From the IMG/VR virus record IMGVR_UViG_3300043811_000050, positions 1-64,000 of that record: a stretch of DNA of 64,000 bases; one strand, 5' to 3'. The notes below the pieces were generated by a model, which searched no databases, was not told where the DNA came from, and worked only from the letters and a program-made list of their open reading frames with translations. Origin of the DNA: a virus. The position numbers were made by a program, and so were the translations under genes. The first letter of the stretch is position 1. Each line of letters begins with the position of its first letter. This document shows positions 21,266 through 64,000 of the stretch, in pieces.

Positions 21266-21415
21266 TGCGAGCGCTCTGCGCCCTGACCCTCGGCATGGCG
21301 GGAGGCTATGCGGTCCACATGACGTTCGTCGTCATGGGCTGGTCGCCGTGATCCCCGCCGTCCCCATGGCGGTCTACTTCAGCAAGTTCGGGGTGCTGAT
21401 ATACAATCCGGTGGC

Positions 21416-46255: not shown

Positions 46256-47771
46256 CATCTTTTATTGGCTCGACACTTGGGTCTGGACGTCGGACCCGAG
46301 GCTCAGCGAGAAGGGCCTGCTGGCTAATGTGCCTTTTGACTTGTTCGAAAGTCAGCGCGAGCTGGTAACCTTCCTGATGGACCGGCTGGCTGCCAAGCAG
46401 GATAATGCGATAGCCAAGAGCCGCGATATGGGGTTCAGCTGGATTGCTGCTGCCGTTGCCGTTTGGCACTGGCTCTATGTGCCGGGGTTCAAGACGACTT
46501 ACAGCAGTTACGAGCAATCCAAGGTTGATCACCTTGGCAATCCGGATAGCTTCTTCGAGAAATGTCGTATCTTGCTGCGTCTCTTGCCGACCTGGATGCT
46601 GCCGCCAGGTTATACTCCGTCGCGTCACGATAATTTCATGCGCTTGGTCAACCCGGAGAATGGTAATGTCATCTCGGGTGAGGTCGGTGACCAGATGGGC
46701 CGCGGTGGGCGGTCGTCGTGGTATTTGCTGGACGAGTGCGCATTCATGGATCACCCTGATGCAGTGGATGCCGCGACTGCCGCGAACACACGCTGTCGCA
46801 CGTTCGGTTCGACAGTCAGCGGCCTCGGCAACCTGTTTGCGCGCAAGTGGTTCAGCTTGGCGGAGGGCCAGAAGTTCCGGTTCCACTGGTCGAGCGACCC
46901 GCGCAAGACAACGCTGGACCCCGGCTGGGAGGCCCGCGAGCGCGGGCGCCTTGAGGGATGGAAGTTTGCGAGTGAGTACGACATCGACTTCTCGGCCTCG
47001 GTCGAGGGCGTGTTTATCCCGGCAGCTTGGGTGCAGAGTTGCGTGAGGTTGGCGGAGTTCGCAAATTATGAGACAGTTCCCCCCTCAGTGCATGGCGTTG
47101 CCGGAATGGACGTCGGTGGCGGGGGGGACGGTCTCAGCACTTACGTTTCCCGTTTTGGCCCTTGGGTACGAACCATTGCCTCCCGTGGTGACCCTGATAC
47201 CATCGGCACTGCTCATTGGGGCGTCGAGTGCGCCCGTGCCGACAGCTTCACGCGACCTGATGGATGGGATTGCCGAGTGACTCGGCTGCACTACGACGAG
47301 ATTGGTATCGGTACCGCAGTCCGCTCGACCTTCTTGCGTCACGAGGTCATTGGCCTCAACACCACCGGCGTCAACGTCGGCAAGCCCCCAAGCGAGACGC
47401 AGTGGGAAGATGGCGAGTCCAGCGAGGAGAAGTTCGGAAACATGAAGGCCGAGCTGTGGGCGATGGTTCGCGAGCGTGTCAAGTGCGGCCACGAGCTGTA
47501 TCTCCATTTGACCGGGCAGCCCGGTGGCGTCGAGCACCCGTGGGCGAATGTGCTGATCCTGCCGAACAAAACCAAGGATGACATGACCTTGCAGGAGCAG
47601 ATGAGCTATCCGCGCCGGCTGACGGACGAGAAGGGTCGTGTGATTGTGGAGAAGAAGAAGGATATGCTAGAGAAGCGTGGGCTCAAGTCGCCTGACCACG
47701 CCGAGGCGCTGGTGTTGACTGTGGCGCAGCCGGACCTCGACGTGTGGGAAAAGCTGGGGGCGGCAGCGTGA
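46155..47771 (+). CDS. Terminase large subunit (start 46155 or 46227)
   Basis: KSRDMGFSW (Walker A), GRGGR, LLDE, GMDVG and SPDHAEAL. Confidence 0.92.
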   Translation: MNFRESILRRLIWSLKCSKSQPLRMIEREKSRRDIFYWLDTWVWTSDPRLSEKGLLANVPFDLFESQRELVTFLMDRLAAKQDNAIAKSRDMGFSWIAAAVAVWHWLYVPGFKTTYSSYEQSKVDHLGNPDSFFEKCRILLRLLPTWMLPPGYTPSRHDNFMRLVNPENGNVISGEVGDQMGRGGRSSWYLLDECAFMDHPDAVDAATAANTRCRTFGSTVSGLGNLFARKWFSLAEGQKFRFHWSSDPRKTTLDPGWEARERGRLEGWKFASEYDIDFSASVEGVFIPAAWVQSCVRLAEFANYETVPPSVHGVAGMDVGGGGDGLSTYVSRFGPWVRTIASRGDPDTIGTAHWGVECARADSFTRPDGWDCRVTRLHYDEIGIGTAVRSTFLRHEVIGLNTTGVNVGKPPSETQWEDGESSEEKFGNMKAELWAMVRERVKCGHELYLHLTGQPGGVEHPWANVLILPNKTKDDMTLQEQMSYPRRLTDEKGRVIVEKKKDMLEKRGLKSPDHAEALVLTVAQPDLDVWEKLGAAA

Positions 47772-47997: not shown

Positions 47998-48213
47998 ATG
48001 GGCGTTGTTCTCCCGTTCAAGCGGCCGGAGTGGCGGATAGTAACCAACCCAGCTGATATGAATGGCTATCAATGTCTAGTCTGCGGCTTATTTTTTTATT
48101 TTGATTATAACTATCGATGCTCGGTCTGCGGCTTATCGTTTTATGTTGATGATGGCATCCGCATGGAAACTGACACTGAATATGCAGCTCGCATTAAGAG
48201 GCTCGAGTCGTAG
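47998..48213 (+). CDS. Small protein with duplicated CxxC module
   Basis: YQCLVCGLFFYFD / YRCSVCGLSFYVD. Confidence 0.5.
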   Translation: MGVVLPFKRPEWRIVTNPADMNGYQCLVCGLFFYFDYNYRCSVCGLSFYVDDGIRMETDTEYAARIKRLES

Positions 48214-50306
48214 TGGCTAAGCGTCAGGGTATCACGCGCAAGACACTGACGCAGGCGCAGCGCGATGAGCGCAAGCACGTCCGCGCCCTTGCGCGCACCA
48301 AGCGCGGCGGGTTTGATAGCTTTAACAACTGGTCGATCAACCTGGGGATGGGCACGAACAACGCCCTCTCCGGTGGCACCTATGGCTTCAACCCAATTAC
48401 GCGCATCCGCACCTTGTTGGAGTGGATGTATCGCGGCAACTGGCTCAGCCTCGTGGCAGTCGACGGCATTGCCAAGGACATGACGCGCGAGGGTTATACT
48501 ATCAAGGCCGAGGATCTCGAGCCCGAGGACACGAAGAAGATCTACACGCGCCTGGCGCGCACGCAGACGATGTCGTGCCTCTGTACTGTCATCAGTTGGG
48601 CGCGACTCTACGGCGGCGCTTGCGGATATATTCAAGTCTACGGGCAGGATCCGGCGACGCCGCTGCGGCCGGAGACGGTGCCGGTCGGCGGCTACCGCGG
48701 GCTAATGGTGCTTGATCGCTGGATGTTGGAGCCGCAGCTCAACGATCTCGTCGAAGAAGGACCAGAAGCTGGATTACCGCGTTTTTACCGCGTGACCAGT
48801 GACGCGCCGGGGCTCAAGGGGCGCCTCGTCCACCACAGCCGCATGATACGCTTGATCGGCGTCAAGCTGCCGTACTGGCAGGCAATGATGGAGAATTACT
48901 GGGGGCTCAGCATCTTCGAGCCGCTGTATGATCGCATGGTGGCGTTCGATTCCGCGACCATGGGCGCGGCGCAATTGGCCTATAAGGCGCATGTCCGCAC
49001 GCTCAAGATCGGCAACTATCGCCAGATCTTAGCGCAGGGCGGCCCGACGTTCAATGGCTTGATGAAGATGCTGGAGCTCGTGCGTACCGGGCAGAGCGTC
49101 GAGGGCTTGACGGTCATCGACGGTCAGGACGAGATGGAGACGCAGCAGACCGGCGCGTTGACCGGTATTGGCGAGATCGTACTCAAACTTGGCGAGCAGA
49201 TTGGCGGCGGGCTCGGTGTGCCGATGACCAAGCTGTTTGGCCAGTCGCCGGGCGGCCTCAACTCGACCGGCGAGAGCGACATCCGTGGTTACTATGATGG
49301 CATCGAGCAGAAGCAGAAGGACGAGCTGTCCGAGCCGATGCACGGCTTGACGCGCGTGGTCGCCTACAGCGAGGGCGTTGGTGACAAGCTCGGTGACGAT
49401 TTTGACATCGAATGGAATCCGCTGTGGCAGATGACCGATGCAGAGCGCGGCGAGATTGATGAGAAGAACACTGGCTCTGCGCTGGCGCTGTTCGAGTCAG
49501 GTAATATTAGTGCCCAGCAGTTGCTTAAGGAGGTCGTGCATCGTGGTCAGGCGACGAACACTTGGCAGACGAGCATCACGGCCGAGGACATCGAGGCAGC
49601 TGACGATGAGCTGCCAGAGCCCGAGATGCCAGCGATGCCTGCCGATCCAAACGCTGCACCGGGGAGTGTGACCGGCGCGACGTTCGGCGCCGGCGGGCAG
49701 CAGACGGGCCAGGTGAAGCCCGGCGGCGCGCTGCGGAAGGAGCTGCGCAAGTCGGGGGATCGCAAGGTGACATGGGGTGTGCACCAATGGGCTCGTGACC
49801 TAGACCCTAAATTATTATCGTCGTGGGCGGTTGATCGCGATTCCGATGGTTATAAGAGATATTCGCGCTATGATATCGATCCCGTGCTTGCGTCGCAGCC
49901 AGGCTCATTTATGGGACTGCCCGTCGTCGTGGAGCACAGTAAGGGCACTCAGCGCTGGGAAGGCGCCCCGCGCCTGCCGGCGCACTACGGCTACATTCCT
50001 GGCGTCGGGTCGGCTGAGGGCGAGACTGAGTGGATGGACTGCATGGTGGGCGACGCGACGGACGCGCCTTACGCATTTGTTCTCGACCACTATGATCGCG
50101 ACGGTAAGTTCGAAGAGCACAAAATCATGATTGGGTTCCATCGCCTCGAAGACGCTTTACGCGCCCACCGTGTCGCCTATGACGGCACCGGGTGCGCGGC
50201 GCGCGGTGTGTGTCAGATGACTATTCCGCAGGTGCAGCAGTGGATGGCGCGCGACCGCAACCAGCGGATTGAGGCGATGGTGCCGATGGATCGGAGGGCG
50301 GCGTGA
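48213..50306 (+). CDS. Portal protein (DUF1073 type) with fused C-terminal inorganic-pyrophosphatase-like domain
   Basis: W.RLYGG, VH.SR, P.TKLFGQSP.GLNSTGESD..YYD; C-terminal VE..KG..R..HYGYI..D..V..F.EHK.M.GF. Confidence 0.88.
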   Translation: MAKRQGITRKTLTQAQRDERKHVRALARTKRGGFDSFNNWSINLGMGTNNALSGGTYGFNPITRIRTLLEWMYRGNWLSLVAVDGIAKDMTREGYTIKAEDLEPEDTKKIYTRLARTQTMSCLCTVISWARLYGGACGYIQVYGQDPATPLRPETVPVGGYRGLMVLDRWMLEPQLNDLVEEGPEAGLPRFYRVTSDAPGLKGRLVHHSRMIRLIGVKLPYWQAMMENYWGLSIFEPLYDRMVAFDSATMGAAQLAYKAHVRTLKIGNYRQILAQGGPTFNGLMKMLELVRTGQSVEGLTVIDGQDEMETQQTGALTGIGEIVLKLGEQIGGGLGVPMTKLFGQSPGGLNSTGESDIRGYYDGIEQKQKDELSEPMHGLTRVVAYSEGVGDKLGDDFDIEWNPLWQMTDAERGEIDEKNTGSALALFESGNISAQQLLKEVVHRGQATNTWQTSITAEDIEAADDELPEPEMPAMPADPNAAPGSVTGATFGAGGQQTGQVKPGGALRKELRKSGDRKVTWGVHQWARDLDPKLLSSWAVDRDSDGYKRYSRYDIDPVLASQPGSFMGLPVVVEHSKGTQRWEGAPRLPAHYGYIPGVGSAEGETEWMDCMVGDATDAPYAFVLDHYDRDGKFEEHKIMIGFHRLEDALRAHRVAYDGTGCAARGVCQMTIPQVQQWMARDRNQRIEAMVPMDRRAA

Positions 50307-50683
50307 TCTTTCGCACAATCGTCTTTGCTGCTGTTTTGTGCGCTGGCGCTGCTCATGCGAAGTGGCAAAACGTCGCCGGAGAATGGGACCAGTATCGTCT
50401 CAACGAGACGCAAAAGCAGTGGTTCAAGGGTGTGCACCCAAAGCGGTCAGGGCTGGCCTGCTGTGACATAGCAGATGGCCACCCGACGGCTGACTAGCAT
50501 CGCGCTGATGGCTGGTATATCCCAAATCCGTTTCATCCTGATTGGGACTGGGTGCGCGTGCCCGACGAGGCGATGACTGTGCCTGGAACTAATCCGATTG
50601 GCGTCGCGACGGTCTGGTTCGGGACGCAGCAGGCTGACGGAACACCATATATTCGTTGCTTCGTGCCGGAAGCCGAAACATGA
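50303..50683 (+). pseudogene. Secreted Cys-rich protein interrupted by an in-frame TAG at 50495-50497
   Basis: Signal peptide and CC..ADG before the stop; W..VP...NP.G.A.VW...IRCF.P after it; ends in an ATGA overlap with the next gene. Confidence 0.65.
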
Positions 50684-51550: not shown

Positions 51551-52321
51551 ATGCCTCGTGACGAGGCTTCCCGCCACCAGCGCGCCAAGCAGCGCCGCAA
51601 GGAGCAATCCGTGTTTGGTCGCGTGCGGCGCGCCGAGATGCAGTATTCGCGTCAGCTGCGCGCCATCGCCCGCAACTGCGGCCTGCTTGCTCATCACTAC
51701 GATCCCGACAAGCCTGAAACGGCACACTGGCTGGTGGGTGCGTTGCGACAGTATGCGGAGACGGTGCGGAATTGGGCGACTGCCAGCGGCGCGCGGATGC
51801 TGGCCGAGGTTGAGCATCGTGATGCGCAGGCGTGGGCGAAGCACAGCAGGAATATGAGCGAGGGGTTGCAGCGCGAGATTGCGACGGCGCCGACGGGAGA
51901 GCTTCTTCGTGCGCTATTGGCTGAGCAGGTGGATCTCATAACTTCAATTCCGCGCGAGGCTGCCGTTCGAGTGCAGGAACTGGCTGTACGCGGGATGGAA
52001 GGAAGCGAACGCCCGGCGCACATCGCCGAGGAGATAATGCGTACGGGCGAGGTCACGGAATCTCGTGCTCGACTCATCGCACGCACCGAAGTCGCTCGGG
52101 CGTCAAGCAAAATGACGGAGAGCCGGGCGCGCTATATCGGTTCTGAGGGCTATATCTGGCGCACCGCCGAGGATCGCGACGTGCGACCTGAGCATCGCAA
52201 GCTCAACGGCAAGTACTTCAGCTGGGACGATCCGCCGATCGCAGGGAGCAATGGCGAACGCGCGCACGCAGGTCAAATCTATAATTGCCGATGCGTCTGC
52301 GAGCCCGTGGTGCCCGAGTGA
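51551..52321 (+). CDS. Head morphogenesis protein (MuF/SPP1 gp7)
   Basis: RARLIARTE, Y.W.T..D..VR..H and GQIYNCRC. Confidence 0.92.
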   Translation: MPRDEASRHQRAKQRRKEQSVFGRVRRAEMQYSRQLRAIARNCGLLAHHYDPDKPETAHWLVGALRQYAETVRNWATASGARMLAEVEHRDAQAWAKHSRNMSEGLQREIATAPTGELLRALLAEQVDLITSIPREAAVRVQELAVRGMEGSERPAHIAEEIMRTGEVTESRARLIARTEVARASSKMTESRARYIGSEGYIWRTAEDRDVRPEHRKLNGKYFSWDDPPIAGSNGERAHAGQIYNCRCVCEPVVPE

Positions 52322-52344: not shown

Positions 52345-53640
52345 ATGAAGAAGCTATGGACTCTGATGGCGGGCGCTCTCGCTCTCGCTGCTGCGTGGAT
52401 CAAAAACCCGGCGGTCGCCCTGTTGGCGTGCGCGCCGGCGTGCGCCTTGGTGCTGTGTACGGCGGTCGCCCCCCGGCTGGGGGCACAGCCCTATCCAATC
52501 AACTCGCCATTCTACATCCCTAGCGCGATCCTTGGCCAACAGACCATCACGGTCGCCGCCGGGTCGAGCTACGTGTTCCAGACCAACGGCCAAGGCACGT
52601 TATACATGCGCGTCTCGGGCTCGCCGGTTGGCCTGTCGGCCCAGGTGCAAGTGACGGAAGGACGCGCGACGCAGACGGTCGCGCAGACGCTCACTTCTTT
52701 CACGCAGGCGAATCCTGGCGTGTTCACGCTCGCCAATCACGGCCTGTCGATCAATCAGCCGGTCGTCTTTACGTCGGCACAATCGACGCTGCCGACGCTG
52801 ATCGTGTCGGGTACCACGTATTACGTGGTTGCGGGCGGATTTACGTCCAGCACGTTCGAGCTGGCGGCCACGCCGGGTGGCACTGCAATCAATACCACCG
52901 CGGGCTCCCCGAGTGGTACGGTGACATTCTCGAGCACGTCGCTGCTGTGGAATAATGCAGCTGTCGACCAGGTCGGGGGATGGCGCGTCTCCAGCCCGAT
53001 TACTGCCACCGGACTCTATAAGCTCAATGTGTCGGGCGCTGCCGCGGTGCGGCTGAACGTCTCGGCGCTGACGAGCGGTGTCACTTATGTCGACTTCAGT
53101 GCTTCTCCTGGTGAAGAGTTCGTTCGCACCAATCCAATGACGCGGGCGACATATCGAGCCTCTGCGTCGATTGGCACAGGTGCGACGACCAACTTCCTGG
53201 TGCTCGCCGGCAGCGCCACCAAGAACGTCATTATCACTCATGCCGACTGCTCTGGCCGTGCGACCGCGGCCATTGTGGTCGGGATTGAGGCTGATTTGCG
53301 TTCCACGGCAGACAGCGGCGACGCGGGCACCGCCGTAACTGCGACCCCACTTGACAGTAGCATGGGCGCGGCGACGGCCACCGTGGTCAGCCATACCACG
53401 AGCCCAACACCGGGCACGCTGACGGGTGCTGTGGCTGTCGGCCAGCTCGGCATTGTGGTTGCTGCGCCGAGCGTGACCGATTTCCCGATGCCGAACGTGC
53501 TCAACTTCGAGTTCGCACGCTGGCCGGGTTCGTCCCAGGTCGTCCTTCACGGTGTCGCTCAGGAGTTCTCGCTGACGACCAGCGCAGCGTTCGGCACGGC
53601 CGCCGCGGTGACCTGCAATCTTGAATGGCAGGAAGATTGA
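52345..53640 (+). CDS. Exported beta-rich structural-like protein
   Basis: GAGGAG RBS; long signal-like N-terminus ending LGA|Q; internal NHGL....V.F.....LP......YYV phage fibre domain. Confidence 0.6.
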   Translation: MKKLWTLMAGALALAAAWIKNPAVALLACAPACALVLCTAVAPRLGAQPYPINSPFYIPSAILGQQTITVAAGSSYVFQTNGQGTLYMRVSGSPVGLSAQVQVTEGRATQTVAQTLTSFTQANPGVFTLANHGLSINQPVVFTSAQSTLPTLIVSGTTYYVVAGGFTSSTFELAATPGGTAINTTAGSPSGTVTFSSTSLLWNNAAVDQVGGWRVSSPITATGLYKLNVSGAAAVRLNVSALTSGVTYVDFSASPGEEFVRTNPMTRATYRASASIGTGATTNFLVLAGSATKNVIITHADCSGRATAAIVVGIEADLRSTADSGDAGTAVTATPLDSSMGAATATVVSHTTSPTPGTLTGAVAVGQLGIVVAAPSVTDFPMPNVLNFEFARWPGSSQVVLHGVAQEFSLTTSAAFGTAAAVTCNLEWQED

Positions 53641-53666
53641 GCAATGTCTAGCGAGGGAGACAGGCC

Positions 53667-54089
53667 GTGCTGAAAATAAGGGTGGTCCTTGTCGTGGCGA
53701 TGCTGAGCCTTCTCAGCGTCTCTCTCGCCTGCGCCCAGTCTTTCCCGCGCGGGTATCTAAGCGCGGCTAACCTCAACCCCACGCTCGTCAACGGCGGACC
53801 GACGCTCATCAAGATGCTCGTGCTGGTTAATACCACTACGACGCTCTACTATCTCAAGTTCTACAACAAGGCGACAGCGCCGACGTGCGGTACCGACACG
53901 CCGCTTTGGACGGTGCCGGTGCCGTTTGGGGCCTCTAACTCCGGGAGCGGAGCTGTGATCCCCGTTCTTGACGGCCTGCAGTTTCCCCTTGGTCTCGGCT
54001 TCTGCCTGACGGGTGGCATCGCCGCGAACGACACTACGAACGCTGCCACGGGCGTTGCGATCAATCTCGGGATCACGAGTTATCAGTGA
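53667..54089 (+). CDS. Exported small beta-sandwich protein
   Basis: Signal ending ACA|Q; YLKFYNKATAPT.GT..P....F..G motif seen in phage structural proteins. Confidence 0.65.
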   Translation: MLKIRVVLVVAMLSLLSVSLACAQSFPRGYLSAANLNPTLVNGGPTLIKMLVLVNTTTTLYYLKFYNKATAPTCGTDTPLWTVPVPFGASNSGSGAVIPVLDGLQFPLGLGFCLTGGIAANDTTNAATGVAINLGITSYQ

Positions 54090-54502
54090 GATATGCCCTG
54101 GTGGCGGCCTTCGCTCTTCTCGCGAGCAGCGCGTGGGCGCAGCTCACGACCATGGGCATCGGGGGTGGCGGGGGAGGCGTCTTCAATGGTCCATCGGTTA
54201 TCGCGGTCACGCCGAACACTGGGCCTACCGCGGGTGGAACGCCAGTCGTCATCAGCGGGACAAACTTCACTGGAGTCACTGCCGTCAGCTTCGGCGGCAC
54301 GCCGGCGGCTTCTTTCATGTTTATCAATGGAACGACGATCGACGCGACGTCCCCGGCGGGATCATCCGGCGTCGTTGACGTGCGCGTTACTACGCCAGTC
54401 GGCATGAGCGGGATAAACGTTGGAGATCGGTTTACCTACGGAACGGTGTGCTCGAACTCAATGGACTTTAGCCAGCCATGCAATACGCAATATGGATTTT
54501 AG
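54086..54502 (+). CDS. Exported IPT/TIG-domain protein
   Basis: Signal ending AWA|Q; P..GP.AGGT.V.ISG.NF.....V.FG...V.VTTP.G. Confidence 0.85.
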   Translation: MRYALVAAFALLASSAWAQLTTMGIGGGGGGVFNGPSVIAVTPNTGPTAGGTPVVISGTNFTGVTAVSFGGTPAASFMFINGTTIDATSPAGSSGVVDVRVTTPVGMSGINVGDRFTYGTVCSNSMDFSQPCNTQYGF

Positions 54503-54771
54503 CAGTTTTTCTCGCGTCCGCGCTGTCGGCGCTTGCGCAGGAGCGCACGTTCACGTGGACGCTCACCGAATCCGAAATGAATTACATTGGGGCGCTGATT
54601 GATATTGAGAAGGCTAAGCCATCAGGGCAGCTTGTCCAGCACCTTGCGGACAAGATCCAAGCCCAAATAACGCAGCAAGTGCAGACGGGCCAGAAGGCGG
54701 CGCTGGACGCGATCGAAAAGCAGGTGCGTGACAGGGTTGAGGCCGAGAAGCATAAGGAACCGCCGCCGTGA
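54478..54771 (+). CDS. Small exported helical protein
   Basis: Signal ending ALA|Q. Confidence 0.55.
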   Translation: MQYAIWILAVFLASALSALAQERTFTWTLTESEMNYIGALIDIEKAKPSGQLVQHLADKIQAQITQQVQTGQKAALDAIEKQVRDRVEAEKHKEPPP

Positions 54772-55940
54772 TAAAGCTCCTTCGTCTTTTGGCGTGCAGT
54801 CTCGTGCTCGCGTGGGGTGCGCCTGCGTCGGCGAATTGGCTGTATACGCCTGGTGCCGGACCTTCCAACTTTAGATCATTCAATAGCGGCACGACTCCTG
54901 CTGGGACGTCTGCGTGCGCCGCGACGAATACTGACTGCATGGCGTTTGTTCCTATAGATATCACGGGGACGCCACTCTTTTCCTCCGGTAATCCTGGTGT
55001 CGTGTCAGGTGGACCTTTTGCGGTCACAGGGACATTTTGGCAGGCCACTCAGCCGGTGAGCGGCACCTTTTGGCAGGCCACTCAGCCGGTCAGTGGTACA
55101 TTCTGGCAGGCAACACAACCGATCAGCGCCGCGGCATTACCATTGCCCACTGGCGCTGCTACTCAAACGACGCTGGCCGCCGTCCTGTCAGCGCTTGGTT
55201 CGCCCTTTCAGGCCGGTGCGTCGATCGGTAATACGACATTCGGATCAACACAGGGTACGTCGCCGTGGGTCATTGGTGGCGCGGCTGCGGCGGGCGCGGT
55301 TCCGGTCGGCAATCCGTTGTTCACCGGAATGTTTGACGGGACCGACATCCGCCGCGTGATGGGCGATGAAACGAACGGCCTATGGGTCAACATCAAGGCG
55401 GGCGCGGGTTCCGGTGGGACGGCACTCGCTGACGAGGCGCCGTTCACGCAGGGTGCGACGAACACGACGCCGCTCGGGTGTTTCTATACTACCTCTGTGA
55501 CCAATTTGCTCACCGGCCAGGCTGGCGTGGGCCGCTGCACTAATGATCGTCAGCAAATGACGTCGGACGCGGCGGTGTTGGCGCAGCTCGTCACACTGAA
55601 CGCGACGGCACTCACGCCGGTCCCGTTTCCGGTTAACATCACATGGACACCGTGCACAGGGGCGACCAGCGCGAATACAATTGCAGCCGGTGGAACGGCG
55701 CAAGTCGCGCTGCCAGCAAGTGCAACGGTTCACGGCTTTGCTATTGCAAATAACTCTGCCGACCCGATGTGGTTGAGCTTTACTACGACAGCAACGATCG
55801 GCAGTGATTTTTTATTGCCTGCGGGGTCGTCAACGGTGTCCGGTGGTAGTTTCTTCGGCCCTCCTGGGTCTGGGTTTAATGGAAACTTGTCAGTGATAGC
55901 GGCCACGACTGGGGATAAGTTTTCGTGCACAAAATTCTGA
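54768..55940 (+). CDS. Exported fibre-like protein with GTFWQATQPVS repeats
   Basis: Signal ending ASA|N; three 11-aa tandem repeats at about 55030-55126. Confidence 0.65.
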   Translation: MIKLLRLLACSLVLAWGAPASANWLYTPGAGPSNFRSFNSGTTPAGTSACAATNTDCMAFVPIDITGTPLFSSGNPGVVSGGPFAVTGTFWQATQPVSGTFWQATQPVSGTFWQATQPISAAALPLPTGAATQTTLAAVLSALGSPFQAGASIGNTTFGSTQGTSPWVIGGAAAAGAVPVGNPLFTGMFDGTDIRRVMGDETNGLWVNIKAGAGSGGTALADEAPFTQGATNTTPLGCFYTTSVTNLLTGQAGVGRCTNDRQQMTSDAAVLAQLVTLNATALTPVPFPVNITWTPCTGATSANTIAAGGTAQVALPASATVHGFAIANNSADPMWLSFTTTATIGSDFLLPAGSSTVSGGSFFGPPGSGFNGNLSVIAATTGDKFSCTKF

Positions 55941-57574
55941 CCATAGTCGCATTTTTGTTGCTCGGTCTCCTGGCACCCCGCGAGGCGTCGGCGCAGCTTG
56001 TGCCGCACGGTTTTCCATCAGCGTTTAGCGGTGGAGGCGGCCTAACCCAGACGAGCTATTACGTCAACAACAGCGGTAGTGATTCTAGCCCTGGTACCGT
56101 TGGCAGCCCATGGCAGACACTCACCAAGGTCAATGGCTTCACGTTTCCAACGAATTCGACCATTTTTTTCGCGGGTGGTCAGTCATTCTCCGGCACGCTT
56201 GAGATAGGAACCGGGTTCGTAACGGGGGCGCAGTTCAGCGGCACTTTAACGGTCGATTCCTATGGCACTGGACGGGCTACCATAAATGCCGGAACCGGCG
56301 ACGGCTTCTATATTATAAATGTTGGAAACGTGACTATTCAAGACCTGATCTTTACGGCATCGGGAGGCGCGAACAATCTCGGAGGGTATGTCACCAATTC
56401 TCAGGCCGGCAACACGCAACTTAGTAACGTCCTGCTAAACAACCTTGATGTGAGCGGATTCGACAAGGCACAGATAGTCCTTGGCGGCGATGCTGGGACT
56501 TCTGGGTTTACGAACTTCTCGCTGACAAACAGCGTTCTGCACGGCGCGGGGAATAGTGGATTCCAATCCTACGGCAGCGTAAGCGGAAGCTACTCGCACT
56601 ACAATGTCACGCTCACGAATGTCACCACGTATGATATCCCTGGCCACAGCGGAGTTGGCTCCGGAAGCGGAATAGTGTTGGGAGAGGTCGATGGCGCGAC
56701 CGTCCAAAACAGCCTGTCCTATGGCAACGGCACTATTGGTTTAGGGGGCGTCGGCATCTGGACCTATGACTCGAACAACATCCATTTCGTCGAGAACGAG
56801 TCACATCACAATACTAGCACCAGCGGCGACGGCGACGGGTTCGACTTCGATGGTGGAATAACTAACTCTCTTATGGAGAAAAACTATTCTCATGATAACA
56901 AGGGCAGTGGTTTCTTGCTATATGCGTATGCTGGTTTGCCATGGAGCAGTAACACTCTTCGGGATAATATCTCTCAGAATGATGGTTCTGGGGGAGCTAG
57001 CGGCATATATATTGGAAATGATGGCACGGCGGTTCAGACGGGCGCGTCGATCTACAATAATACGGTATACAATTCGAGTGGCCGCGAATGTCTTGCGATT
57101 GGCGTAGGTACCTCTTCCAATAACATCACCGCCCTTATCGCAAACAACATTTTCAATTGCGATTCAACTCCGCTGGTCGCCACTGCAGCGACATTGACAG
57201 GATCGTCAGTATCTCTACTCACCAACGACTATTATGCGCCGACATCGTTTTCCATTACGTGGTTGGGAGCGACCTATACCAGTTTTGCCTCATGGCAGAC
57301 GGCTACAGGGCAAGAGAAGATCAGTGGGACGAACGTCGGGCTTACGTCGAACCCATTGTTGTCCGGTGCCGGGAGCGGCGGAACGTGCGGGGGATGGTCG
57401 GCGACATGCCCGTCGCAGTACGAGCTGACCTCCGGTTCGCCAATGATTGGCACCGGGCTCAACCTGACATTGTCTCCCTATAGTCTGGTAGTTGGGACAA
57501 GTGACTACTACACTAATACGATCCCGAATGGGACTGGCACTGGCTATAATGTCGGCGCATACGGGGCACCATGA
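55925..57574 (+). CDS. Exported right-handed beta-helix (pectate-lyase-like) protein
   Basis: Signal ending ASA|Q; YYV...G.D...G....PW.T and DGDGFDFD..N.SHDN repeats. Confidence 0.8.
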   Translation: MHKILTIVAFLLLGLLAPREASAQLVPHGFPSAFSGGGGLTQTSYYVNNSGSDSSPGTVGSPWQTLTKVNGFTFPTNSTIFFAGGQSFSGTLEIGTGFVTGAQFSGTLTVDSYGTGRATINAGTGDGFYIINVGNVTIQDLIFTASGGANNLGGYVTNSQAGNTQLSNVLLNNLDVSGFDKAQIVLGGDAGTSGFTNFSLTNSVLHGAGNSGFQSYGSVSGSYSHYNVTLTNVTTYDIPGHSGVGSGSGIVLGEVDGATVQNSLSYGNGTIGLGGVGIWTYDSNNIHFVENESHHNTSTSGDGDGFDFDGGITNSLMEKNYSHDNKGSGFLLYAYAGLPWSSNTLRDNISQNDGSGGASGIYIGNDGTAVQTGASIYNNTVYNSSGRECLAIGVGTSSNNITALIANNIFNCDSTPLVATAATLTGSSVSLLTNDYYAPTSFSITWLGATYTSFASWQTATGQEKISGTNVGLTSNPLLSGAGSGGTCGGWSATCPSQYELTSGSPMIGTGLNLTLSPYSLVVGTSDYYTNTIPNGTGTGYNVGAYGAP

Positions 57575-60150
57575 GAAAAATCGCCATAGCTATTATTTTC
57601 TTTCTCGCTGTTTTCGGCGCGTTGCCGTCACATGCGCAGTTCAACGGCTGCGCGCCGGGGTTCTGTGGCTCGTATCCGCTTTCCACGGCAGGATGCACGT
57701 CAGCTTCTACATATATCGGCCCTGGAGACAAACAGGCTTACGCTATTTGGGCAGGGGTACGGGCCTACTCGCACGCGACGTGTGGAAAGCCGGCGCTGAA
57801 TGTCTGCGACAGCACGGGCGGCTCGGACGTGTCTTGCGCTGATCTGGTAACCGACACCACGACAGGACTGATCGTCGCCAAGGCGATGCCGCCGCCTAGC
57901 TCGATCACATGCGGAGCCGTGCACAATCCTAACTGCACCGTGAAGATCATCTATGATCAGACGGGCAACAACGCCTGCGGCGGCCCGTGCAATGCCACTC
58001 AGAACACGGTGGCGAATAGATACTACATTGACAGCTACTCTAGCTGCAGCGGGCTCTCGGCGACCATTTGCCTGTACAGCAACGTGGCGACGTCCGGCGG
58101 GTACACCATGCCTGGCTCTGCCACGTTCTCGCAGCCCTATGCGATTGAGATAATCGCATACACCGCGAACGCTAGCGCTCTCAATATCTTCATGCAGGTT
58201 AACGATACTAGGTTGTATTTTCAGACTTCATCCTCCGGCGACATCATCAGCGCGTGCGACTATACGAGTTTCGCGACGACTAATATCTACTCGAACGTGC
58301 CGACTGACTTGGTATCAACCTGCGTCGGGGGGGTAAATTCCCTGTATCAGCAGGGCGTCGTGAGCGGCAATACTGGCTCGGGCGGCGCGACGACTCAGGC
58401 AGGGACGCCGTCCGTCCTGCAAAACTCGTCGTCGCCGGTTAACTTCTGGGAGTACGGGTTTATCAACGGCAACCCGATTTCGAATATCCCAACGATACAT
58501 ATGGCTGCTTGTACGTTCTATGGATACACTTGTGGCGGTTCGGGATGTACTGCGGCTACTGCTTGGCTGGCGCGCACGTCTGGGCTCAGTATGACCGAGA
58601 CCAATGCCTATACTACCATGATCTGTGGCATGATTGCGGATGGAAACGGATGTGCGGCATGGAGCGGCAGCAGTGGCACTATGGACCTGCTTTACGTTTT
58701 TGCCACGAACACGACGACTACGGCAAATTTGAATCTGTGCGGGACCGGAAATACTCTGACTCAATCAGGAACCGTTACGTTCCTTGCCGATAACTATTAT
58801 CAAGGGAACGGGTCTACGGGATACTTTGATACCGGCCTGATACTTCCATCGACCGACTTCACCCAAAACAGTGCATCACTTGGAACCTATGTTCTCAACA
58901 ACAGAACCAGCACGAGCCTTTCGTACTGCGAAATTGGACATCCGACGGGGATATTTATAGCGCCGGACAACAACGCGGGCGGATATGAACAGTCCTTGCT
59001 AGAGGTAACAGGTGACTCGGCTGCAGGTCAAACTTCTGCGCAGGGCGCGTGGATTGCAACAAGAACTGCAAGTAATGCAGTTGCTGGATATAAAAATGGA
59101 AGTTCCACGCCGATTTTGACAGGAACAACTGCGAGCGTGAGTTTTAGTGGGTCATACAGCATCTACGTTTCTTCTTGTCGCTTTGGTGCTGGCCAAACCG
59201 CGTCCAATTGGTCTGCCGATCAGATCGCTGCCACCTTTGTCGGTGGAGCACTCACCGCAACCCAAGCTGTGGCTATCAATAATCGAATTAACGCCTACAT
59301 GACTGCGCTCGGGATCAACGTGTATTCGGCGAGTTGCAGTGGCTACCAGGGTGCTGGAGATATAATTCCGTCTGCATCGGCCGGGTTCTCAGTACAGGCG
59401 TGGTCGGTGGCGACATGCGGCAGCAAGGTTGCAAATGTATGCGTGTCCGGGGTTTGCGCGGACATGTTGTCTAGTGCGATAAATGGACAGCTTGTTTCGC
59501 AGAACATCAACGGGACTGTGTGCCCGGCCACGAGTACGACTGCGTGCGTCGTTGAAAAGTGGTACGACCAGACGGCGAGTGGGCAGTGCTCGGGAAGCTG
59601 CGATCTTGGCCAATACATGACCAACCCATATATGGTCCTGACGACAGCATGTCCGAGCCCGATTACTGTTTGCTTGATAAGCAACAGCACTGGGACTGCT
59701 GCAATTAATGCAGCGGCCGGAAACATAACCTTGCCGGTTCCGGTCACAACCATGGTCGCTGGAGCCATAGCTAGCACCGGAGCGGGAAGTTTCAATCAAT
59801 ACTTTGCCGTGAGCAATGGCGCACAAATAACCGCTGATGGCGGGGCAGCCAACACCGTCGATTTTAGTTGTAACGCCTTTGGGACTTCGCATTCAAATCC
59901 CACGACCGATGGCGTATTTCATTCCCTTCTTTTGGAATGCGATAGCACGACATATGGCATTTGGGTAAACGGGTCAGCTGGGACCTCATCGTCATGGACA
60001 TCAGCTTCAGAAACCGGATTTCCATACGCTGGATACACTGCCACACCAAGTCAAGCGGTGTATCTTGTCGAAGCAGGCATTTGGAAAAGTGGCGCGTCCG
60101 CTAGCGCAGCGGCTTTATACACCAACCAGCACACAAGGTTCGGGTTCTGA
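57571..60150 (+). CDS. Exported Cys-rich multidomain lectin/arabinofuranosidase-B-like protein
   Basis: Signal ending SHA|Q; two G.GD...RA.S...C...YDQT domains flanking a ConA/LamG-like domain; about 34 Cys. Confidence 0.65.
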   Translation: MRKIAIAIIFFLAVFGALPSHAQFNGCAPGFCGSYPLSTAGCTSASTYIGPGDKQAYAIWAGVRAYSHATCGKPALNVCDSTGGSDVSCADLVTDTTTGLIVAKAMPPPSSITCGAVHNPNCTVKIIYDQTGNNACGGPCNATQNTVANRYYIDSYSSCSGLSATICLYSNVATSGGYTMPGSATFSQPYAIEIIAYTANASALNIFMQVNDTRLYFQTSSSGDIISACDYTSFATTNIYSNVPTDLVSTCVGGVNSLYQQGVVSGNTGSGGATTQAGTPSVLQNSSSPVNFWEYGFINGNPISNIPTIHMAACTFYGYTCGGSGCTAATAWLARTSGLSMTETNAYTTMICGMIADGNGCAAWSGSSGTMDLLYVFATNTTTTANLNLCGTGNTLTQSGTVTFLADNYYQGNGSTGYFDTGLILPSTDFTQNSASLGTYVLNNRTSTSLSYCEIGHPTGIFIAPDNNAGGYEQSLLEVTGDSAAGQTSAQGAWIATRTASNAVAGYKNGSSTPILTGTTASVSFSGSYSIYVSSCRFGAGQTASNWSADQIAATFVGGALTATQAVAINNRINAYMTALGINVYSASCSGYQGAGDIIPSASAGFSVQAWSVATCGSKVANVCVSGVCADMLSSAINGQLVSQNINGTVCPATSTTACVVEKWYDQTASGQCSGSCDLGQYMTNPYMVLTTACPSPITVCLISNSTGTAAINAAAGNITLPVPVTTMVAGAIASTGAGSFNQYFAVSNGAQITADGGAANTVDFSCNAFGTSHSNPTTDGVFHSLLLECDSTTYGIWVNGSAGTSSSWTSASETGFPYAGYTATPSQAVYLVEAGIWKSGASASAAALYTNQHTRFGF

Positions 60151-62804
60151 TGAATAGGGTCATTGCTCTCATCGTCTGTGCGCTGTTTGTCCTGGGCGCT
60201 GCGGCCCATGCGCAGTTTAACCCCGGCGGCAGCGGTGGAGGCGGAGGCGGAGGCGGAGGCAGCAGCACCCCCTTTGGGAACTTCATTGATCCGACCGTAC
60301 TGTTCAATGCTGACACGACCGGTACAGCCACCACCGGGACGATCACGAACGGTACTAACTCGCTGAGCGTCGCGAGCGCCACTACATGGCTCAATGGGCA
60401 AGGCATCGCGATCGCCAATGCAGGTCCGAGCGCCACCTTCACCGGGACGGCGGGGATTACGACCATCACGGCCGCTGGTGAGTCGGTTACGGTGCCCTCC
60501 CTTACCGTGTCGGCTGTGACCGGTACAATAACAGCGGGGATGCTAGTCTCCGGGACGGGGGTGCCTGCTGGAACCTACATCGGTCAGCAGACGAGTGGCA
60601 CGACCGGAGGGGCCGGTGTCTACGTCGTAAGTGCGACGACGACGGCCAGCGCCGCAAGCTTGGCCGGAAAGACAGAACTGATTGGCTGCGTCGGATCGAT
60701 ATCTGGGACCACGTTCACCATCGTCACTTGCGGCACAACCACAGCGCTCAACGCCTCGGCCACGGCGACGACACAGGCAGTCAACCACGACGACACCTAT
60801 GCGCTCGGGCAGGCTATAGCGCTGGCGGCCCCTGGACCACCCAAGCGCCCGATCAATCTCCCCTGTGGCACCTATAATGTGACCAGCACGCTCGTACTTG
60901 CTTATCCGATAAACATATTCGGAGAGGGAAGGGTGTGCGCCACCATACAGAATCGCGGCACGACAGATGATGTTTTGAAATTGACTAATAACTACACCAC
61001 CGGCGGCGGCCTGACGCTGCGAGATTTTGCTGTCTCCCAGGCTTCCGGGATTACCCCGACCAACGGGTACGGAATAAATCTGGCAGCCGCCGGGGGAGAT
61101 TGCATGTCTCAGGCACAGCCGCAGACGCACATATTCGATATGTATATCAGCGGCACATATGGGGGGATGAACATGGGGCCGGGTGTGTTAAATAGTTGGT
61201 TCAAGGACATGACTATTTATGGCTTGGGCCTTGGTCAGGCTATTTTTTATAATAATCCTCCACCATGCGGTGACAATGTTGTTGATGGTGTGTTCATGGG
61301 GGGTAACACTACATCCGGCCTTATTATAGCTACAGCCGACACCATATCATTTGTCAACAATAAAATCCTCAATTCTCAGTTGAAATTTGTGGCCGCCACT
61401 AGTTCCATCAGCGCCGCTATGCCGATCATAGACCGAGTACGAGTGGAAAACTTAAGCATTGAGGTAAACCCCGGTGGTCCGTCCTGTCTGATCGATTTTG
61501 GCACAAACGGTGTTTACCAAGTCATACTCATTGGAGGTGAGGCTGGCGGATCGGACGGCCAGTCGGCGCTGTTCTGCAACGCCAACAACAATATGAATGG
61601 CTATGTTTCAGGAATGGTCTCTGCTGGAACCAGCGATTATGCGGAAGGCGCCGTTAACGCGGAGTGGCCTGCCCCCATATTCCAAGGCTGTGGTACCAAT
61701 GGCACAGCCGTGGGAAGCGCCCTGAGCGGCACTGTCACCATGACGTGCTCGATGGGCAGCAACATGGCGATGCGGTTTGGTGTTCCAGCGACCACCAGTA
61801 ATGGAGCGACCATTGTAGTCCCAACGGTGAACTCAGGGTGGACATGCAGCGTCCAAGATGCGACTACCCCGGCCAATAGTTTTGTCCAGACTGGATGGAC
61901 GATTAATATAGCGTTCTTCAAGAACATAACGGCAGGTAGCGGCGATCAACTAACGTATGCCTGTCACCGGGGTGGGCCAAATCTACCTCCTTCGTGCTGG
62001 GGCCCTGGCGATATTGCTCCTGCTCTCGCTTGGCATGGGCTGCGGGCTTATTCGTCGGCTACTTGTGGCGCTCGGTTTGCCAACGTGTGCGTTAGCGGCG
62101 TGTGCGCGGACATGGTGACAAGTTCGACCACGGGTGCGGTGGTGCCCCAGGTGATCAACAGTGTCACTTGTCCAAATTCGTCCGGCACCTGCAAGGTGGC
62201 GAAATTGTACGATCAGACTCTCGGGAGCCAGTGCACCGGGTCGTGCGATCTAGCTCAGTCCGTCACAGCGGACCAATTTGAATTTATTACTTCGACGCCT
62301 CCTTCTGGAATCTGTAAGAGTGCATCACTGTGCCTTTATGACCCAGGGACGGCCGGAACTATCAATATGCTAAGTGCCGGGTCGGCTAGTATGTCGTTGC
62401 CATTCTCACTTGAATATGTCGGGTATATGAACACGACATCTGCAGCTCCCACACTAATTTCGATAGGAAGCGCTGGGATAGTCAATGATGGGGTCAACGC
62501 AAATCACTACTATTACTCGTGTAATTTTACCAATGGTAATGGAGCGCTCGATCTGCTGTCCACTCAGTTGTACCCTTTTATACTTACCTGTCCAGAGGCT
62601 AACACGAGCACACTGACCGCTTATGGTGTCATTATGCAGACTGTGGCATTTGGATCGGCTGGTACACAGAGCGGTCAGCTGGTGCTGGGGTCGGCGAATA
62701 ATGTGCCCAAGATTGTCGTGGAGGACGGCTTCTGGAACAGCGATCAAACTATTAACACGCCATTGCTCGGGTCCAATACGACTGCGTTCTGGGGCATCCT
62801 ATGA
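60150..62804 (+). CDS. Exported tailspike-like beta-helix protein with C-terminal Cys-rich YDQT domain
   Basis: Signal ending AHA|Q; DDT.A...AI......LP.G.Y......G.G pectate-lyase-3-like start; third copy of the YDQT domain. Confidence 0.7.
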   Translation: MNRVIALIVCALFVLGAAAHAQFNPGGSGGGGGGGGGSSTPFGNFIDPTVLFNADTTGTATTGTITNGTNSLSVASATTWLNGQGIAIANAGPSATFTGTAGITTITAAGESVTVPSLTVSAVTGTITAGMLVSGTGVPAGTYIGQQTSGTTGGAGVYVVSATTTASAASLAGKTELIGCVGSISGTTFTIVTCGTTTALNASATATTQAVNHDDTYALGQAIALAAPGPPKRPINLPCGTYNVTSTLVLAYPINIFGEGRVCATIQNRGTTDDVLKLTNNYTTGGGLTLRDFAVSQASGITPTNGYGINLAAAGGDCMSQAQPQTHIFDMYISGTYGGMNMGPGVLNSWFKDMTIYGLGLGQAIFYNNPPPCGDNVVDGVFMGGNTTSGLIIATADTISFVNNKILNSQLKFVAATSSISAAMPIIDRVRVENLSIEVNPGGPSCLIDFGTNGVYQVILIGGEAGGSDGQSALFCNANNNMNGYVSGMVSAGTSDYAEGAVNAEWPAPIFQGCGTNGTAVGSALSGTVTMTCSMGSNMAMRFGVPATTSNGATIVVPTVNSGWTCSVQDATTPANSFVQTGWTINIAFFKNITAGSGDQLTYACHRGGPNLPPSCWGPGDIAPALAWHGLRAYSSATCGARFANVCVSGVCADMVTSSTTGAVVPQVINSVTCPNSSGTCKVAKLYDQTLGSQCTGSCDLAQSVTADQFEFITSTPPSGICKSASLCLYDPGTAGTINMLSAGSASMSLPFSLEYVGYMNTTSAAPTLISIGSAGIVNDGVNANHYYYSCNFTNGNGALDLLSTQLYPFILTCPEANTSTLTAYGVIMQTVAFGSAGTQSGQLVLGSANNVPKIVVEDGFWNSDQTINTPLLGSNTTAFWGIL

Positions 62805-64000
62805 GCCGCAAGCGCTGTCCTTACGGGCCGACGAGCGAGGCTGACGCCGCCGCGCTGCGGGCGGCAAAGGAAAAGCGTTTTCTCGACGAGCGCCTCGCAC
62901 ATTTAATGTGGGGGCAAAAAGTTCTGACTGCGGCGAAGGCCACGGCGCTGGGCGCACTCGCGCTTGCCAGTGTGGCGTTCGTTGCGTTGCCGTCCGACAG
63001 GGTTTCCCGAAGAACGGCGCTGGGCGCACTCGCCAGTGTGGCGCTCATTGCGTTGCCGTCCGACAGGGCCGAGGCTTGGTTTCCTCACGGTACAGCCAGC
63101 GGCCCGCCTCCGATGACGCCGCAGTGGCCCGTGGCCCTGGGCGGATATACTAACTATTGGGTCGCTGATCCAAGCGCCGGGGGGAATGATACCACCAATA
63201 CCGGAACAAGCATGTCGTCGCCGTGGGCGACTGTTTCTAAGGTTAACACCGCGCTGGCTGGAGCAACGGGGAACGTTGCTGTAAACTTTCTTAGCACGTT
63301 TACCTATCAATGCCCGCTCAACGGGGCCGTACTCACTCCGTCCGGGACGACTAACTTTGCGTATCGTGGGTTGGTCGGCGCGACGACCCCTCCGATAATC
63401 TCAGCCAACGGCGTGGCCAGCAATCTCGGGATGGTTCGCACCGGAAGTGGTGTGCTTTTGGAGGGCATATCATTCCAAGGAAACTCAAACTCGTATGGGG
63501 TAGTGACAGGCGGGTCTGGTCTGGAAATTTCCCATTGCTGGGTTCAGAGTTTCCCTGTGGCAGGCGGCGGTGGGGTCGCTATTGCGGTTAACAACACGAA
63601 TACAAACATTCATGACTCTGTAATAGGTGGTCTAAGCCCGACCGACCAAACCAGTGTTGGTGTCATATATAACGCTGTCAGTGGTTCGGTTCTAAAGAAC
63701 AATACCATAGGGTATTGTGGTGGTAACCAAGCTAATCCAACACAGTATGGATTTGGCGTCCACACAACGGACAGCACGCTCACAGGAGTCCCCGGATTTA
63801 CATATTCCGGTGGCGTTCCTACCAACGCCCTTTTGGAAATAGCCTTTAACATAGTTCATGACTGCGGGGGGAATCTTACTTCGACGTTCGGTGGCGGCCC
63901 CAGCGGGATTGAGCTGGGCGGCGGTAATCGTCTATGGTGCCACGACAACATCGTTTATAACATACAGTCTGTGTCGTCGTTTACGGGTGGAACTGACTTT
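62801..64000 (+). CDS. Exported beta-helix protein (3'-truncated by the window; absent from the ORF track)
   Basis: Frame open from ATG 62801 to the end; SRRTALGALASVALIALPSDRAEA|WFPHG; G.D..N.G.....PW.T..KVN as in 55925..57574. Confidence 0.75.
   Translation, partial: MSRKRCPYGPTSEADAAALRAAKEKRFLDERLAHLMWGQKVLTAAKATALGALALASVAFVALPSDRVSRRTALGALASVALIALPSDRAEAWFPHGTASGPPPMTPQWPVALGGYTNYWVADPSAGGNDTTNTGTSMSSPWATVSKVNTALAGATGNVAVNFLSTFTYQCPLNGAVLTPSGTTNFAYRGLVGATTPPIISANGVASNLGMVRTGSGVLLEGISFQGNSNSYGVVTGGSGLEISHCWVQSFPVAGGGGVAIAVNNTNTNIHDSVIGGLSPTDQTSVGVIYNAVSGSVLKNNTIGYCGGNQANPTQYGFGVHTTDSTLTGVPGFTYSGGVPTNALLEIAFNIVHDCGGNLTSTFGGGPSGIELGGGNRLWCHDNIVYNIQSVSSFTGGTDF
62942..63068 (+). repeat. Tandem duplication of signal-peptide coding sequence
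   Basis: 62942-63002 and 63014-63068 are near-identical (TALGAL..ASVA..ALPSDR twice). Confidence 0.85.

Follow-up and report, generated by a model that had tools for sequence, protein, structure and literature searches.

We analyzed the DNA stretch formed by bases 1-64000 (the window) of the 73,133-base virus record IMGVR_UViG_3300043811_000050, which is rated complete, and in particular a block of nine consecutive plus-strand genes, c1 to c9, that lies between a MuF-like minor head gene and a DUF2213 head gene. The block spans 52345-64945 and takes up 12,601 bases, or 17% of the genome. Each of the nine genes opens with a hydrophobic leader ending in a small-x-small motif, and the next gene after c9, DUF2213, has no such leader. 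The initial annotation of the window had described a run of signal-peptide genes from just after MuF onward, and nine consecutive genes of this kind are indeed found, with all of the cleavage contexts that it had listed (LGA↓Q, ACA↓Q, AWA↓Q, ALA↓Q, ASA↓N, ASA↓Q, SHA↓Q, AHA↓Q and AEA↓W for c1 to c9).

Table 1. Genes of the leader cassette and the late genes that flank it (positions are those of the record)
Feature	Position	Strand	Product or match
c1	52345-53640	+	431 aa
c2	53667-54089	+	140 aa
c3	54086-54502	+	138 aa
c4	54478-54771	+	97 aa
c5	54768-55940	+	390 aa
c6	55925-57574	+	549 aa
c7	57571-60150	+	859 aa
c8	60150-62804	+	884 aa
c9	62801-64945	+	714 aa; 945 bases lie beyond the window end
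MuF-like minor head gene	51551-52321	+	PF04233, 1.8e-18; upstream border of the cassette
DUF2213 head gene	64942-66387		4.5e-41; scaffold-like; downstream border of the cassette
Portal	48213-50306		PF06381 (Phage_portal_3), 1.1e-87; fused inorganic-pyrophosphatase-like domain
Large terminase	46086-47771		tblastn matches in related loci

The cassette genes are closely packed, with seven of the eight internal junctions overlapping by 1-25 nt (c2 and c3 by GTGA) and a 26-nt spacer containing GAGGGAG at the c1/c2 junction. On the upstream side a 23-nt spacer containing GAGGAG follows the MuF stop at 52321, and on the downstream side c9 overlaps DUF2213 by GTGA, so that the proposed translational coupling of most of the genes extends to the exit junction. 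Weak consensus scans gave 9 promoter-like sites within the cassette compared with 7.8 in shuffles, and 11 terminator-like sites compared with 13.7, with no excess of either. A moron or lysogenic-conversion cassette, expressed from a prophage with its own promoter and terminator, is disfavored by the overlapping junctions on both sides together with this lack of promoter or terminator excess in weak scans. The GC content at third codon positions (GC3) is 0.68-0.76 in c1-c4, 0.62 in c5 and 0.55-0.60 in c6-c9, compared with 0.70-0.80 in the core genes, and the lower values of c6-c9 point to later acquisition of these four genes.

Leaders were called with a crude rule-based signal-peptide test of our own (not SignalP), which flags all nine cassette genes and 26 of 204 minus-strand open reading frames (ORFs) of at least 60 aa. 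For a leader of the Sec/signal peptidase I type we asked for a basic n-region, an uncharged hydrophobic core, small residues at -3 and -1 and a total of ∼18-30 residues, and by this rule the leaders of c2, c3, c5, c6, c7 and c8 have all of these features. Seven of the nine (c2-c8) look canonical by eye, although the n-region of c4 lacks a basic residue, and the two atypical leaders are those of c1, with 47 aa and two hydrophobic cores, and c9, with 91 aa. The mature parts of c1 to c8 contain 2, 2, 2, 0, 6, 4, 34 and 24 cysteines, all even numbers, and c9, which has a leader with an arginine pair (RR), contains 13 counted from A91. Cysteine makes up 2.22% of the cassette proteins compared with 0.73% of 23 other proteins of the same phage. 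The initial annotation had the products folded and disulfide-bonded in the periplasm, and for the eight Sec-type proteins the even counts and the cysteine content make such folding plausible. Upstream of MuF, a 64-aa ORF (50303-50497) that overlaps the stop codon of the portal gene shows a signal-peptide-like leader as well, with AHA↓K at its end, and contains 3 Cys; it may represent a tenth exported product.

The first two genes belong to families in which conservation begins exactly at the predicted cleavage site. In its predicted model (pLDDT, the predicted local distance difference test, 67), c1 consists of the 47-aa double leader, a XepA/YomS-like β-sandwich, an inserted small β domain and a C-terminal jelly roll. 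The N-domain matches XepA (6i56, Z 13.5, root-mean-square deviation 2.8, 108 residues aligned) and YomS (6i5o, Z 13.1), the next fold match having a value of 9.3, and the inserted domain is like domains of phage tail and neck proteins. The jelly roll is like satellite-virus coats, the HFTV1 turret (8qpg, Z 8.7) and a cement protein (KHP40, 7dou, Z 7.6), with Z values of 7.6-9.3, the turret and cement values lying in what the tool calls its "common" range. The c1 family has 36 members, and in a 14-row alignment the +1 residue Q48 is invariant and marks the start of identity, the leaders before it varying in length and sequence; the Cys pair C302 and C424 is invariant as well. A search with the c1-family alignment (A2) found no relative in 185,579 species-representative genomes and at least one locus, of 2.2 kb, in a metagenome scan. 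Among 50,697 cultured phage records, seven matched c1, through the inserted small domain alone and over at most 30% of the query, and there is no similarity between c1 and the leader protein of locus L084.

The c2 protein is a 23-aa leader followed by an ∼117-aa domain with two conserved cysteines (C74 and C113, both invariant), and its family numbers at least 499 relatives among 8000 candidates scored. The rule flagged 108 of the 120 relatives listed as leader-bearing, most of the 12 misses visibly having leaders too, and the mature start is conserved, with Gln at +1 in 70 of the 108. No significant similarity links c2 to the C-terminus of c5, and a complex prediction for the c1 C-domain with c2 gave a score of 0.00, which speaks neither for nor against binding. 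Of the three genes that follow c2, c3 encodes a leader, a Gly run and an IPT/TIG domain (PF01833, 5.8e-12), in agreement with the IPT/TIG product that had been noted in the cassette. The short c4 product matches no family. The c5 protein has a leader, three tandem 33-nt repeats (55021-55119) and a C-terminal part matching phrog_22789; the 11-residue unit encoded by the repeat occurs once in a leader-bearing protein of locus L008, with 23 of 26 residues identical. Neither Pfam, run on isolated domains, nor NCBIfam placed c2, c4 or c5 in a known family.

Downstream of these, c6 encodes a leader and a right-handed β-helix that is GH136-like by profile and by predicted fold. A profile built from c6 and nine relatives (A1) matched the GH136 lacto-N-biosidases of the PDB at 1.5e-26 to 5e-12, and with the predicted model (pLDDT 74, predicted template modeling score 0.76) Foldseek ranks 1-6 were all GH136 (E 1.2e-9 to 4.3e-8), at 13-18% identity and template modeling (TM) scores of 0.40-0.53. 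Weaker fold matches were pectin and alginate lyases, epimerases and tailspikes, with HK620 tailspike chains at E ∼1e-3. The A1 alignment contains an invariant D/G-rich stretch (G305, F306, D307, D309 and G311). We found 993 relatives of c6, many of them bacterial-type proteins with Por_Secre_tail or carbohydrate-binding-module-like domains; 90 of the 119 listed were flagged as leader-bearing, and most of 20 that we read have Sec, RR or lipoprotein-type leaders. Of 27 relatives read in viral contigs, ∼7 have leaders and ∼20 have leaderless N-termini, short or long, and in locus L008 the relative is a tailspike-like 608-aa protein behind a phage-type N-terminus. Because the same modules occur leaderless behind phage-type N-termini in viral contigs, the leader appears to take the place of a virion anchor.

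The last three products are large and rich in β-helix and Cys-rich parts. The c7 protein, with 34 Cys, has a leader, a Cys-rich domain, a LamG-like middle part and a second Cys-rich domain, and c8 has a leader, a Gly run, a pectate-lyase-like β-helix with a hypervariable body and a C-terminal Cys-rich domain. The Cys-rich domain, of ∼265 residues, is thus present in two copies in c7 and one in c8 (c7 copies against the c8 C-terminus, 4e-24 and 9e-27). In the Atlas, residues 591-859 of c7 lie near LamG clusters and viral PF09206/PF13385 clusters (score 0.98, TM 0.82), and the neighbors of the Cys-rich domain are 100% viral clusters, with PF09206 in 54-80% of their members. The Pfam model PF09206 (ArabFuran-catal) gave no match to the three isolated c7/c8 domains at E up to 5, and we describe the domain as resembling ArabFuran-catal/LamG in its Atlas features and predicted structure. 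Together with the GH136 likeness of c6 by profile and fold, this resemblance bears out the glycan-enzyme and lectin-like products proposed in the initial annotation. Across the isolated domains of c2, c4, c5, c7, c8 and c9, Pfam gave a single, sub-threshold match, of c8 to PF12708 (9.4e-6, 26 bits against a cut-off of 27). Single sequences of c6, c7, c8 and c9 returned nothing meaningful from the PDB, tblastn with c8 found no match in the cultured phage records, and viral contigs scanned with c8 or DUF2213 as single proteins gave none either, alignments being needed as queries.

The final gene, c9, encodes a long RR-motif leader followed by a β-helix-type protein. The leader contains a 66-72-nt tandem duplication of its core (62942-63068), with the RR pair between the copies. 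Of the 38 relatives that make up the c9 family, four have RR leaders before a common W-F/L-x-H-G mature start, and many others have phage-type N-termini without a leader. For twin-arginine translocation (Tat) we looked for a motif of the S/T-R-R-x-F-L type ahead of the hydrophobic core and for a match to TIGR01409 or PF10518. The RR motifs were read by eye in c9 and in its relatives P0168, P0169, P0177 and P0184, and the c9 leader, as a candidate for Tat, found no match in Pfam or in an NCBIfam scan.

We surveyed the interval between MuF and DUF2213 in relatives with an alignment of three MuF proteins, which gave 64 viral loci. In the 40 with DUF2213 downstream the distance between the two genes is 51-3266 bp (median 751), and in eight genome loci it is 11-1110 bp; here it is 12,621 bp. 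Relatives thus normally join MuF directly to DUF2213, and the content of this interval is unusual, as the initial annotation had held. Seven of the genome loci are prophage-like regions in Caballeronia, Burkholderia, Dyella and Ralstonia that lack leader genes, and the only one of the eight to have a leader gene in the slot is a contig of an Acidobacteriaceae metagenome-assembled genome; as a lead to the host, these loci point to soil Burkholderiales, Rhodanobacteraceae or Acidobacteriaceae. The nearest cultured portal, that of Edwardsiella phage vB_EpM_ZHS, is 46% identical, and in this phage the MuF-like gene and DUF2213 lie ∼1 kb apart with three small genes between. Elsewhere the slot also holds homing endonucleases, GIY-YIG genes, an intein-like ORF and small genes. 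It is therefore a plastic insertion site, and a head function does not follow from position alone.

A subclade of the relatives has one to four leader-bearing genes directly after MuF. Relatives of c1 follow MuF in L039, L040, L042, L045 and L046, with three leader genes before DUF2213 in L045; c1 matches follow it in L115, L117 and L141, with c2 as well in L115; and L052-L054 have a short c1-like and a c2-like gene in the slot, both missed by the rule and read by hand. The slot of L078 contains four leader genes, including a c2 relative at 57% and c3- and c5-like genes, and in L122, a contig of 70 kb, the stretch from MuF to a DUF2213-like gene includes four leader genes (185, 464, 878 and 130 aa). 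Since a related subclade has one to four leader genes at this place, we regard the cassette as an expansion of a conserved slot; judged from these sequences, the leader-bearing c1/c2 core is old in the lineage, in keeping with the core-like GC3 of c1-c4, and no larger expansion was seen than that of the present phage. Beside the leader genes of L078 (1838-4768) lie a GIY-YIG endonuclease gene and a gene for a 408-aa multi-pass protein with a weak Wzy_C (O-antigen-ligase) match (3.6e-5, 24 bits against a cut-off of 31.7), and in L122 a leaderless 418-aa protein with a Nudix-like middle, read by eye, is encoded between the leader cassette and the DUF2213-like gene (13878-15134).

Similar arrays occur next to structural genes in other, unrelated viral contigs. 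In L008, a different phage type, six or more leader genes, some of them c5/c2-like, stand after the c6 relative (13953-21653); L004, L005 and L012 each have three consecutive large leader proteins (L004, 6045-15666), and L024 has four (4547-11755), one with a c9-like mature start. Leader genes of the c2-like and c7-like kinds are also found together away from head genes. Exported-protein arrays may be widespread among the viral contigs fetched here.

Natural variants of the cassette were found in contigs of the soil runs X2 and X3, from one study, aligned at 85% likeness. In one contig 55965 is joined to 57634 with 25 letters between, so that c6 is absent and, in our reading of the frame, the c6 leader stands in frame on mature c7; the c6 body has zero depth in both runs and is a presence/absence polymorphism. 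At a second joint, 52394 runs into 52486 across 19 letters, which leaves c1 with one 23-aa leader, the form found in its closest relatives. In a contig of 6 kb the end of c7 and c9 are retained at ∼90-95% identity, with a diverged stretch of similar length in place of 60222-62709, the c8 body. Parts of the cassette have no contig cover in runs X4 and X7. Because the natural variants are rearranged there, the leader boundary is where modules are gained, lost and replaced, and these alignments indicate that natural populations retain the cassette and reshuffle it while its leaders stay intact; as the contigs come from one study, they establish that such variants exist rather than how frequent they are. 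Recombination seems to concentrate in the DNA that encodes leaders, the c9 leader having its tandem duplication and the c1 leader being like two joined family leaders. The initial annotation had named a recently captured, unexpressed host island as a finding that would refute it. Such an island does not agree with c1 and c2, which belong to viral leader-bearing families found beside MuF, nor with the lack of c1 relatives in the species-representative genomes, a verdict that is qualified by the GC3 values of c6-c9.

Taken together, the conservation boundary, the even Cys counts, the RR leaders in four c9 relatives and the module swaps support the view that the leaders are real export signals. 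The reading that we favor, and consider somewhat better than an even guess, is that the cassette encodes non-virion, glycan-active proteins that are exported by Sec or Tat, act on envelope or matrix polysaccharide of the host and are freed at lysis. What the sequences show is the anatomy of the genes, how their families are related, the folds of c6 and c1, the conserved synteny and the variants in natural populations; from this we infer export, leader cleavage, disulfide formation, substrate and benefit as follows. The cassette genes would share transcription and translation with the late head genes, and their products would not be built into the virion in the cytoplasm. Eight products would be exported through Sec and c9 possibly through Tat, and in the periplasm the leaders would be removed and the cysteines oxidized. 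There, and outside after lysis, the proteins would bind and cut envelope or matrix polysaccharide, with c6 as a GH136-like hydrolase, c8 and c9 contributing β-helices, c7 and c8 concanavalin A/ArabFuran-catal-like modules and c1-c5 small β-sandwich parts. The phage would probably benefit in that its progeny escape from exopolysaccharide, or in that receptors are destroyed on the dying cell and on debris from it, and the leader would double as a module boundary for the gain, loss and swapping of genes. Of the interpretation first put forward, the intact, coupled leader genes and the glycan-enzyme and lectin-like products are supported and periplasmic disulfide folding is plausible.

Several points weigh against this reading. 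The leaders were called with a sequence rule of our own that has a background of ∼13%, and c1 and c9 were flagged solely from internal start codons. The double leaders of these two proteins could impair export or form a membrane hairpin. TIGR01409, a Tat model, matched none of five c9-family leaders, the Tat reading of c9 being one of motifs seen by eye. The GH136 likeness of c6 is one of profile and fold, from which the substrate would have to be extrapolated. As the periplasm of a diderm cell is not the outside, exopolysaccharide would be reached only at lysis unless a secretion system is involved, and among the sequencing runs listed as holding the stretch there is no RNA run. Finally, a head-related role has room, because c1 and c2 are conserved beside head genes in several lineages and the c1 jelly roll is cement/turret-like at Z 7.6-8.7.

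Of the alternatives, the one we take most seriously, while still thinking it unlikely, is that the proteins remodel the envelope before lysis, trimming nascent O-antigen, capsule or exopolysaccharide or masking receptors, and so block superinfection and re-adsorption. The proteins would be periplasmic in late infection, and exported enzymes of tailspike fold of the WceF type control polymer length in the part of the source that concerns them (PMC7949094). The hypervariable body of c8 fits an arms race over surface glycans, and the L078 slot holds the Wzy_C-like protein among its leader genes, although that match lies under the Pfam threshold. Against this, late expression leaves little time to alter an existing surface, and nothing separates action before lysis from action after it.

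A step less probable, in our judgment, is that proteins folded in the periplasm dock after lysis on finished capsids or necks as adhesin or enzyme appendages. Other decoration proteins bind mature capsids unaided. The cassette lies within the head operon, leader-bearing c1/c2-like pairs stand between MuF and DUF2213 in L045 and L052-L054, with c1 and c2 after MuF in L115, the c1 jelly roll matches the HFTV1 turret and KHP40 cement protein, and the mature N-termini are short and partly common to c6-c9 and their relatives. This phage already has a Phage_cement gene, however, and the c1 matches lie in the tool's common range; inserts of unrelated kinds, among them GIY-YIG genes and the intein-like ORF, are found in the slot as well, leader genes of the c2-like and c7-like kinds are not confined to the vicinity of head genes, and no precedent turned up in the literature searched. 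A more elaborate form, to which we give slightly less credence again, is a two-compartment particle, in which the capsid would be cytoplasmic and exported, disulfide-hardened adhesins and enzymes would snap on at burst, with c1/c2 as docking base, c5-c9 as swappable payload and the leader as recombination joint.

We think it very doubtful that the genes are auxiliary carbon-degrading genes or passive cargo, that is, captured host-type secreted carbohydrate-active enzymes (CAZymes) that would either improve the nutrition of the host or be of no use in the phage cycle. The 993 relatives of c6, many of bacterial type, its dispensability in natural variants and the GC3 of c6-c9, under that of the core genes, would agree with such an origin, and signal peptides are reported, in the portion of the source dealing with them, on 5% (3261/64,678) of prophage CAZymes (PMC13507307). 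On the other side, these are genes of a late lytic operon without a promoter of their own, c1 and c2 are viral-contig families, with c1 lacking any relative in the species-representative genomes, the nearest clusters of the Cys-rich domain are 100% viral, and the ORFs are intact with leaders in frame across the rearrangements. That the proteins are not exported at all, their hydrophobic N-termini being membrane anchors, assembly handles or mis-called starts, would suit the two hydrophobic segments of c1 and c9, the n-region of c4 and leader calls made by our own rule, but is hardly credible given starts fixed by overlapping stop-start junctions and Shine-Dalgarno motifs, small-x-small motifs before conserved mature starts across hundreds of relatives, and even Cys counts. 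Virion tailspikes or fibers were rejected on the grounds that the N-termini are export-type leaders followed by short Gly- or Cys-rich segments and that the genes lie between MuF and DUF2213.

Phage depolymerases are normally seen as tail parts, or as tail proteins made in excess and released when the cell lyses, and the cassette is a variant of phage depolymerase-like accessory proteins. It shares with the HK620 and P22 tailspikes right-handed β-helix glycan-cutting modules and lectin-like C-terminal domains, and, as in receptor-binding genes, the body of c8 is swapped between close variants; it differs from virion tailspikes in having an export leader in place of the N-terminal anchor and in being located within the head operon rather than beside the tail genes. 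The GH136 lacto-N-biosidases (LnbX and relatives) match the c6-family profile and are the top six fold matches of c6, yet differ from it in the low identity and TM scores given above. For LnbX a partner chaperone is known. XepA and YomS, of the Bacillus prophages PBSX and SPbeta, are the best fold match of the c1 N-domain, but identity to c1 is 10-14%, XepA belongs to the lysis cassette of a Gram-positive element, and c1 adds the jelly-roll domain and a cleavable-looking leader. In the sections of the source that concern it, XepA of PBSX, made late, is reported to be exported, to be missing from particles and to have no transmembrane domain, signal peptides being discussed there just for lysins of other phages (PMC6834076).

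WceF of Pantoea stewartii, in the same partial account as above, is a Tat-exported enzyme with a tailspike-like fold that modifies exopolysaccharide and acts on the polymer of its producer (PMC7949094). It resembles what we suspect for the c9 family, an exported β-helix enzyme with a Tat-type leader, and differs in being encoded in a chromosomal polysaccharide-synthesis cluster rather than as a phage late gene; the likeness is one of fold and suspected export. Prophage CAZymes and soil viral auxiliary genes are likewise phage-encoded with predicted signal peptides, as far as the relevant part of that study goes (PMC13507307), but they are scattered single genes scored as helpers of host metabolism, whereas here nine genes are coupled in one block of a late structural operon, and two conserved members, c1 and c2, are not enzymes. 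The pertinent passages on Bacillus phage GH32 enzymes describe them without signal peptides (PMC4595243), and those on the glycan-active turrets of HFTV1 have them assembled on the capsid and describe no export (PMC12494034). In the literature searched, a limited library, we found no account of a tailed phage whose head operon contains a multi-gene cassette with leaders.

Such a cassette suggests that in some phages depolymerase-like proteins leave the cytoplasm by export rather than being mounted on the virion. If the favored reading is right, this would be a third route, a dedicated set of exported, oxidatively folded, soluble glycan-active proteins expressed with the head genes, and one that recurs in the fetched viral contigs, as leader genes after MuF and as arrays of three to six large leader proteins in other phage types. 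It would offer a possible source of secretion-ready, disulfide-stabilized depolymerase-like enzymes, adds two uncharacterized leader-bearing families (c1, with 36 members, and c2, with at least 499) and provides a concrete case of the signal peptide as an exchange joint in modular evolution.

By its gene set, this soil phage is a contractile-tailed one of the Pseudomonas E217/Pam3 type. DUF2213 is followed by Phage_cement (PF22758) and then Major_capside (7.2e-64), and the phage also encodes a DUF3383 sheath (2.3e-101), a Pam3 gp28-type holin, a family A DNA polymerase and helicases; its fiber genes are separate from the cassette, with a PF23140 match at 924-1898. The inorganic-pyrophosphatase-like domain of the portal is C-terminal (PF18823, 1.6e-16). 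Because the first 616 and last 613 bases of the record match, at 87.7% identity, the record appears to close on itself with a diverged overlap; the two ends (1-616 and 72521-73133) could represent such a terminal overlap, or the assembly could have joined two strains, and a neck-type gene occurs in two versions, at 7-495 and 72449-73012. An M15_4 peptidase of 425 aa, likely the endolysin (17170-18447), has a hydrophobic N-terminal segment and may be membrane-tethered or exported. An HNH endonuclease gene with a low GC3 of 0.51 (68652-69428 of the record, numbered 6653-7429 in L002) follows the major capsid gene, with a hairpin of 14-bp stem (L002 6589-6622) ahead of it.

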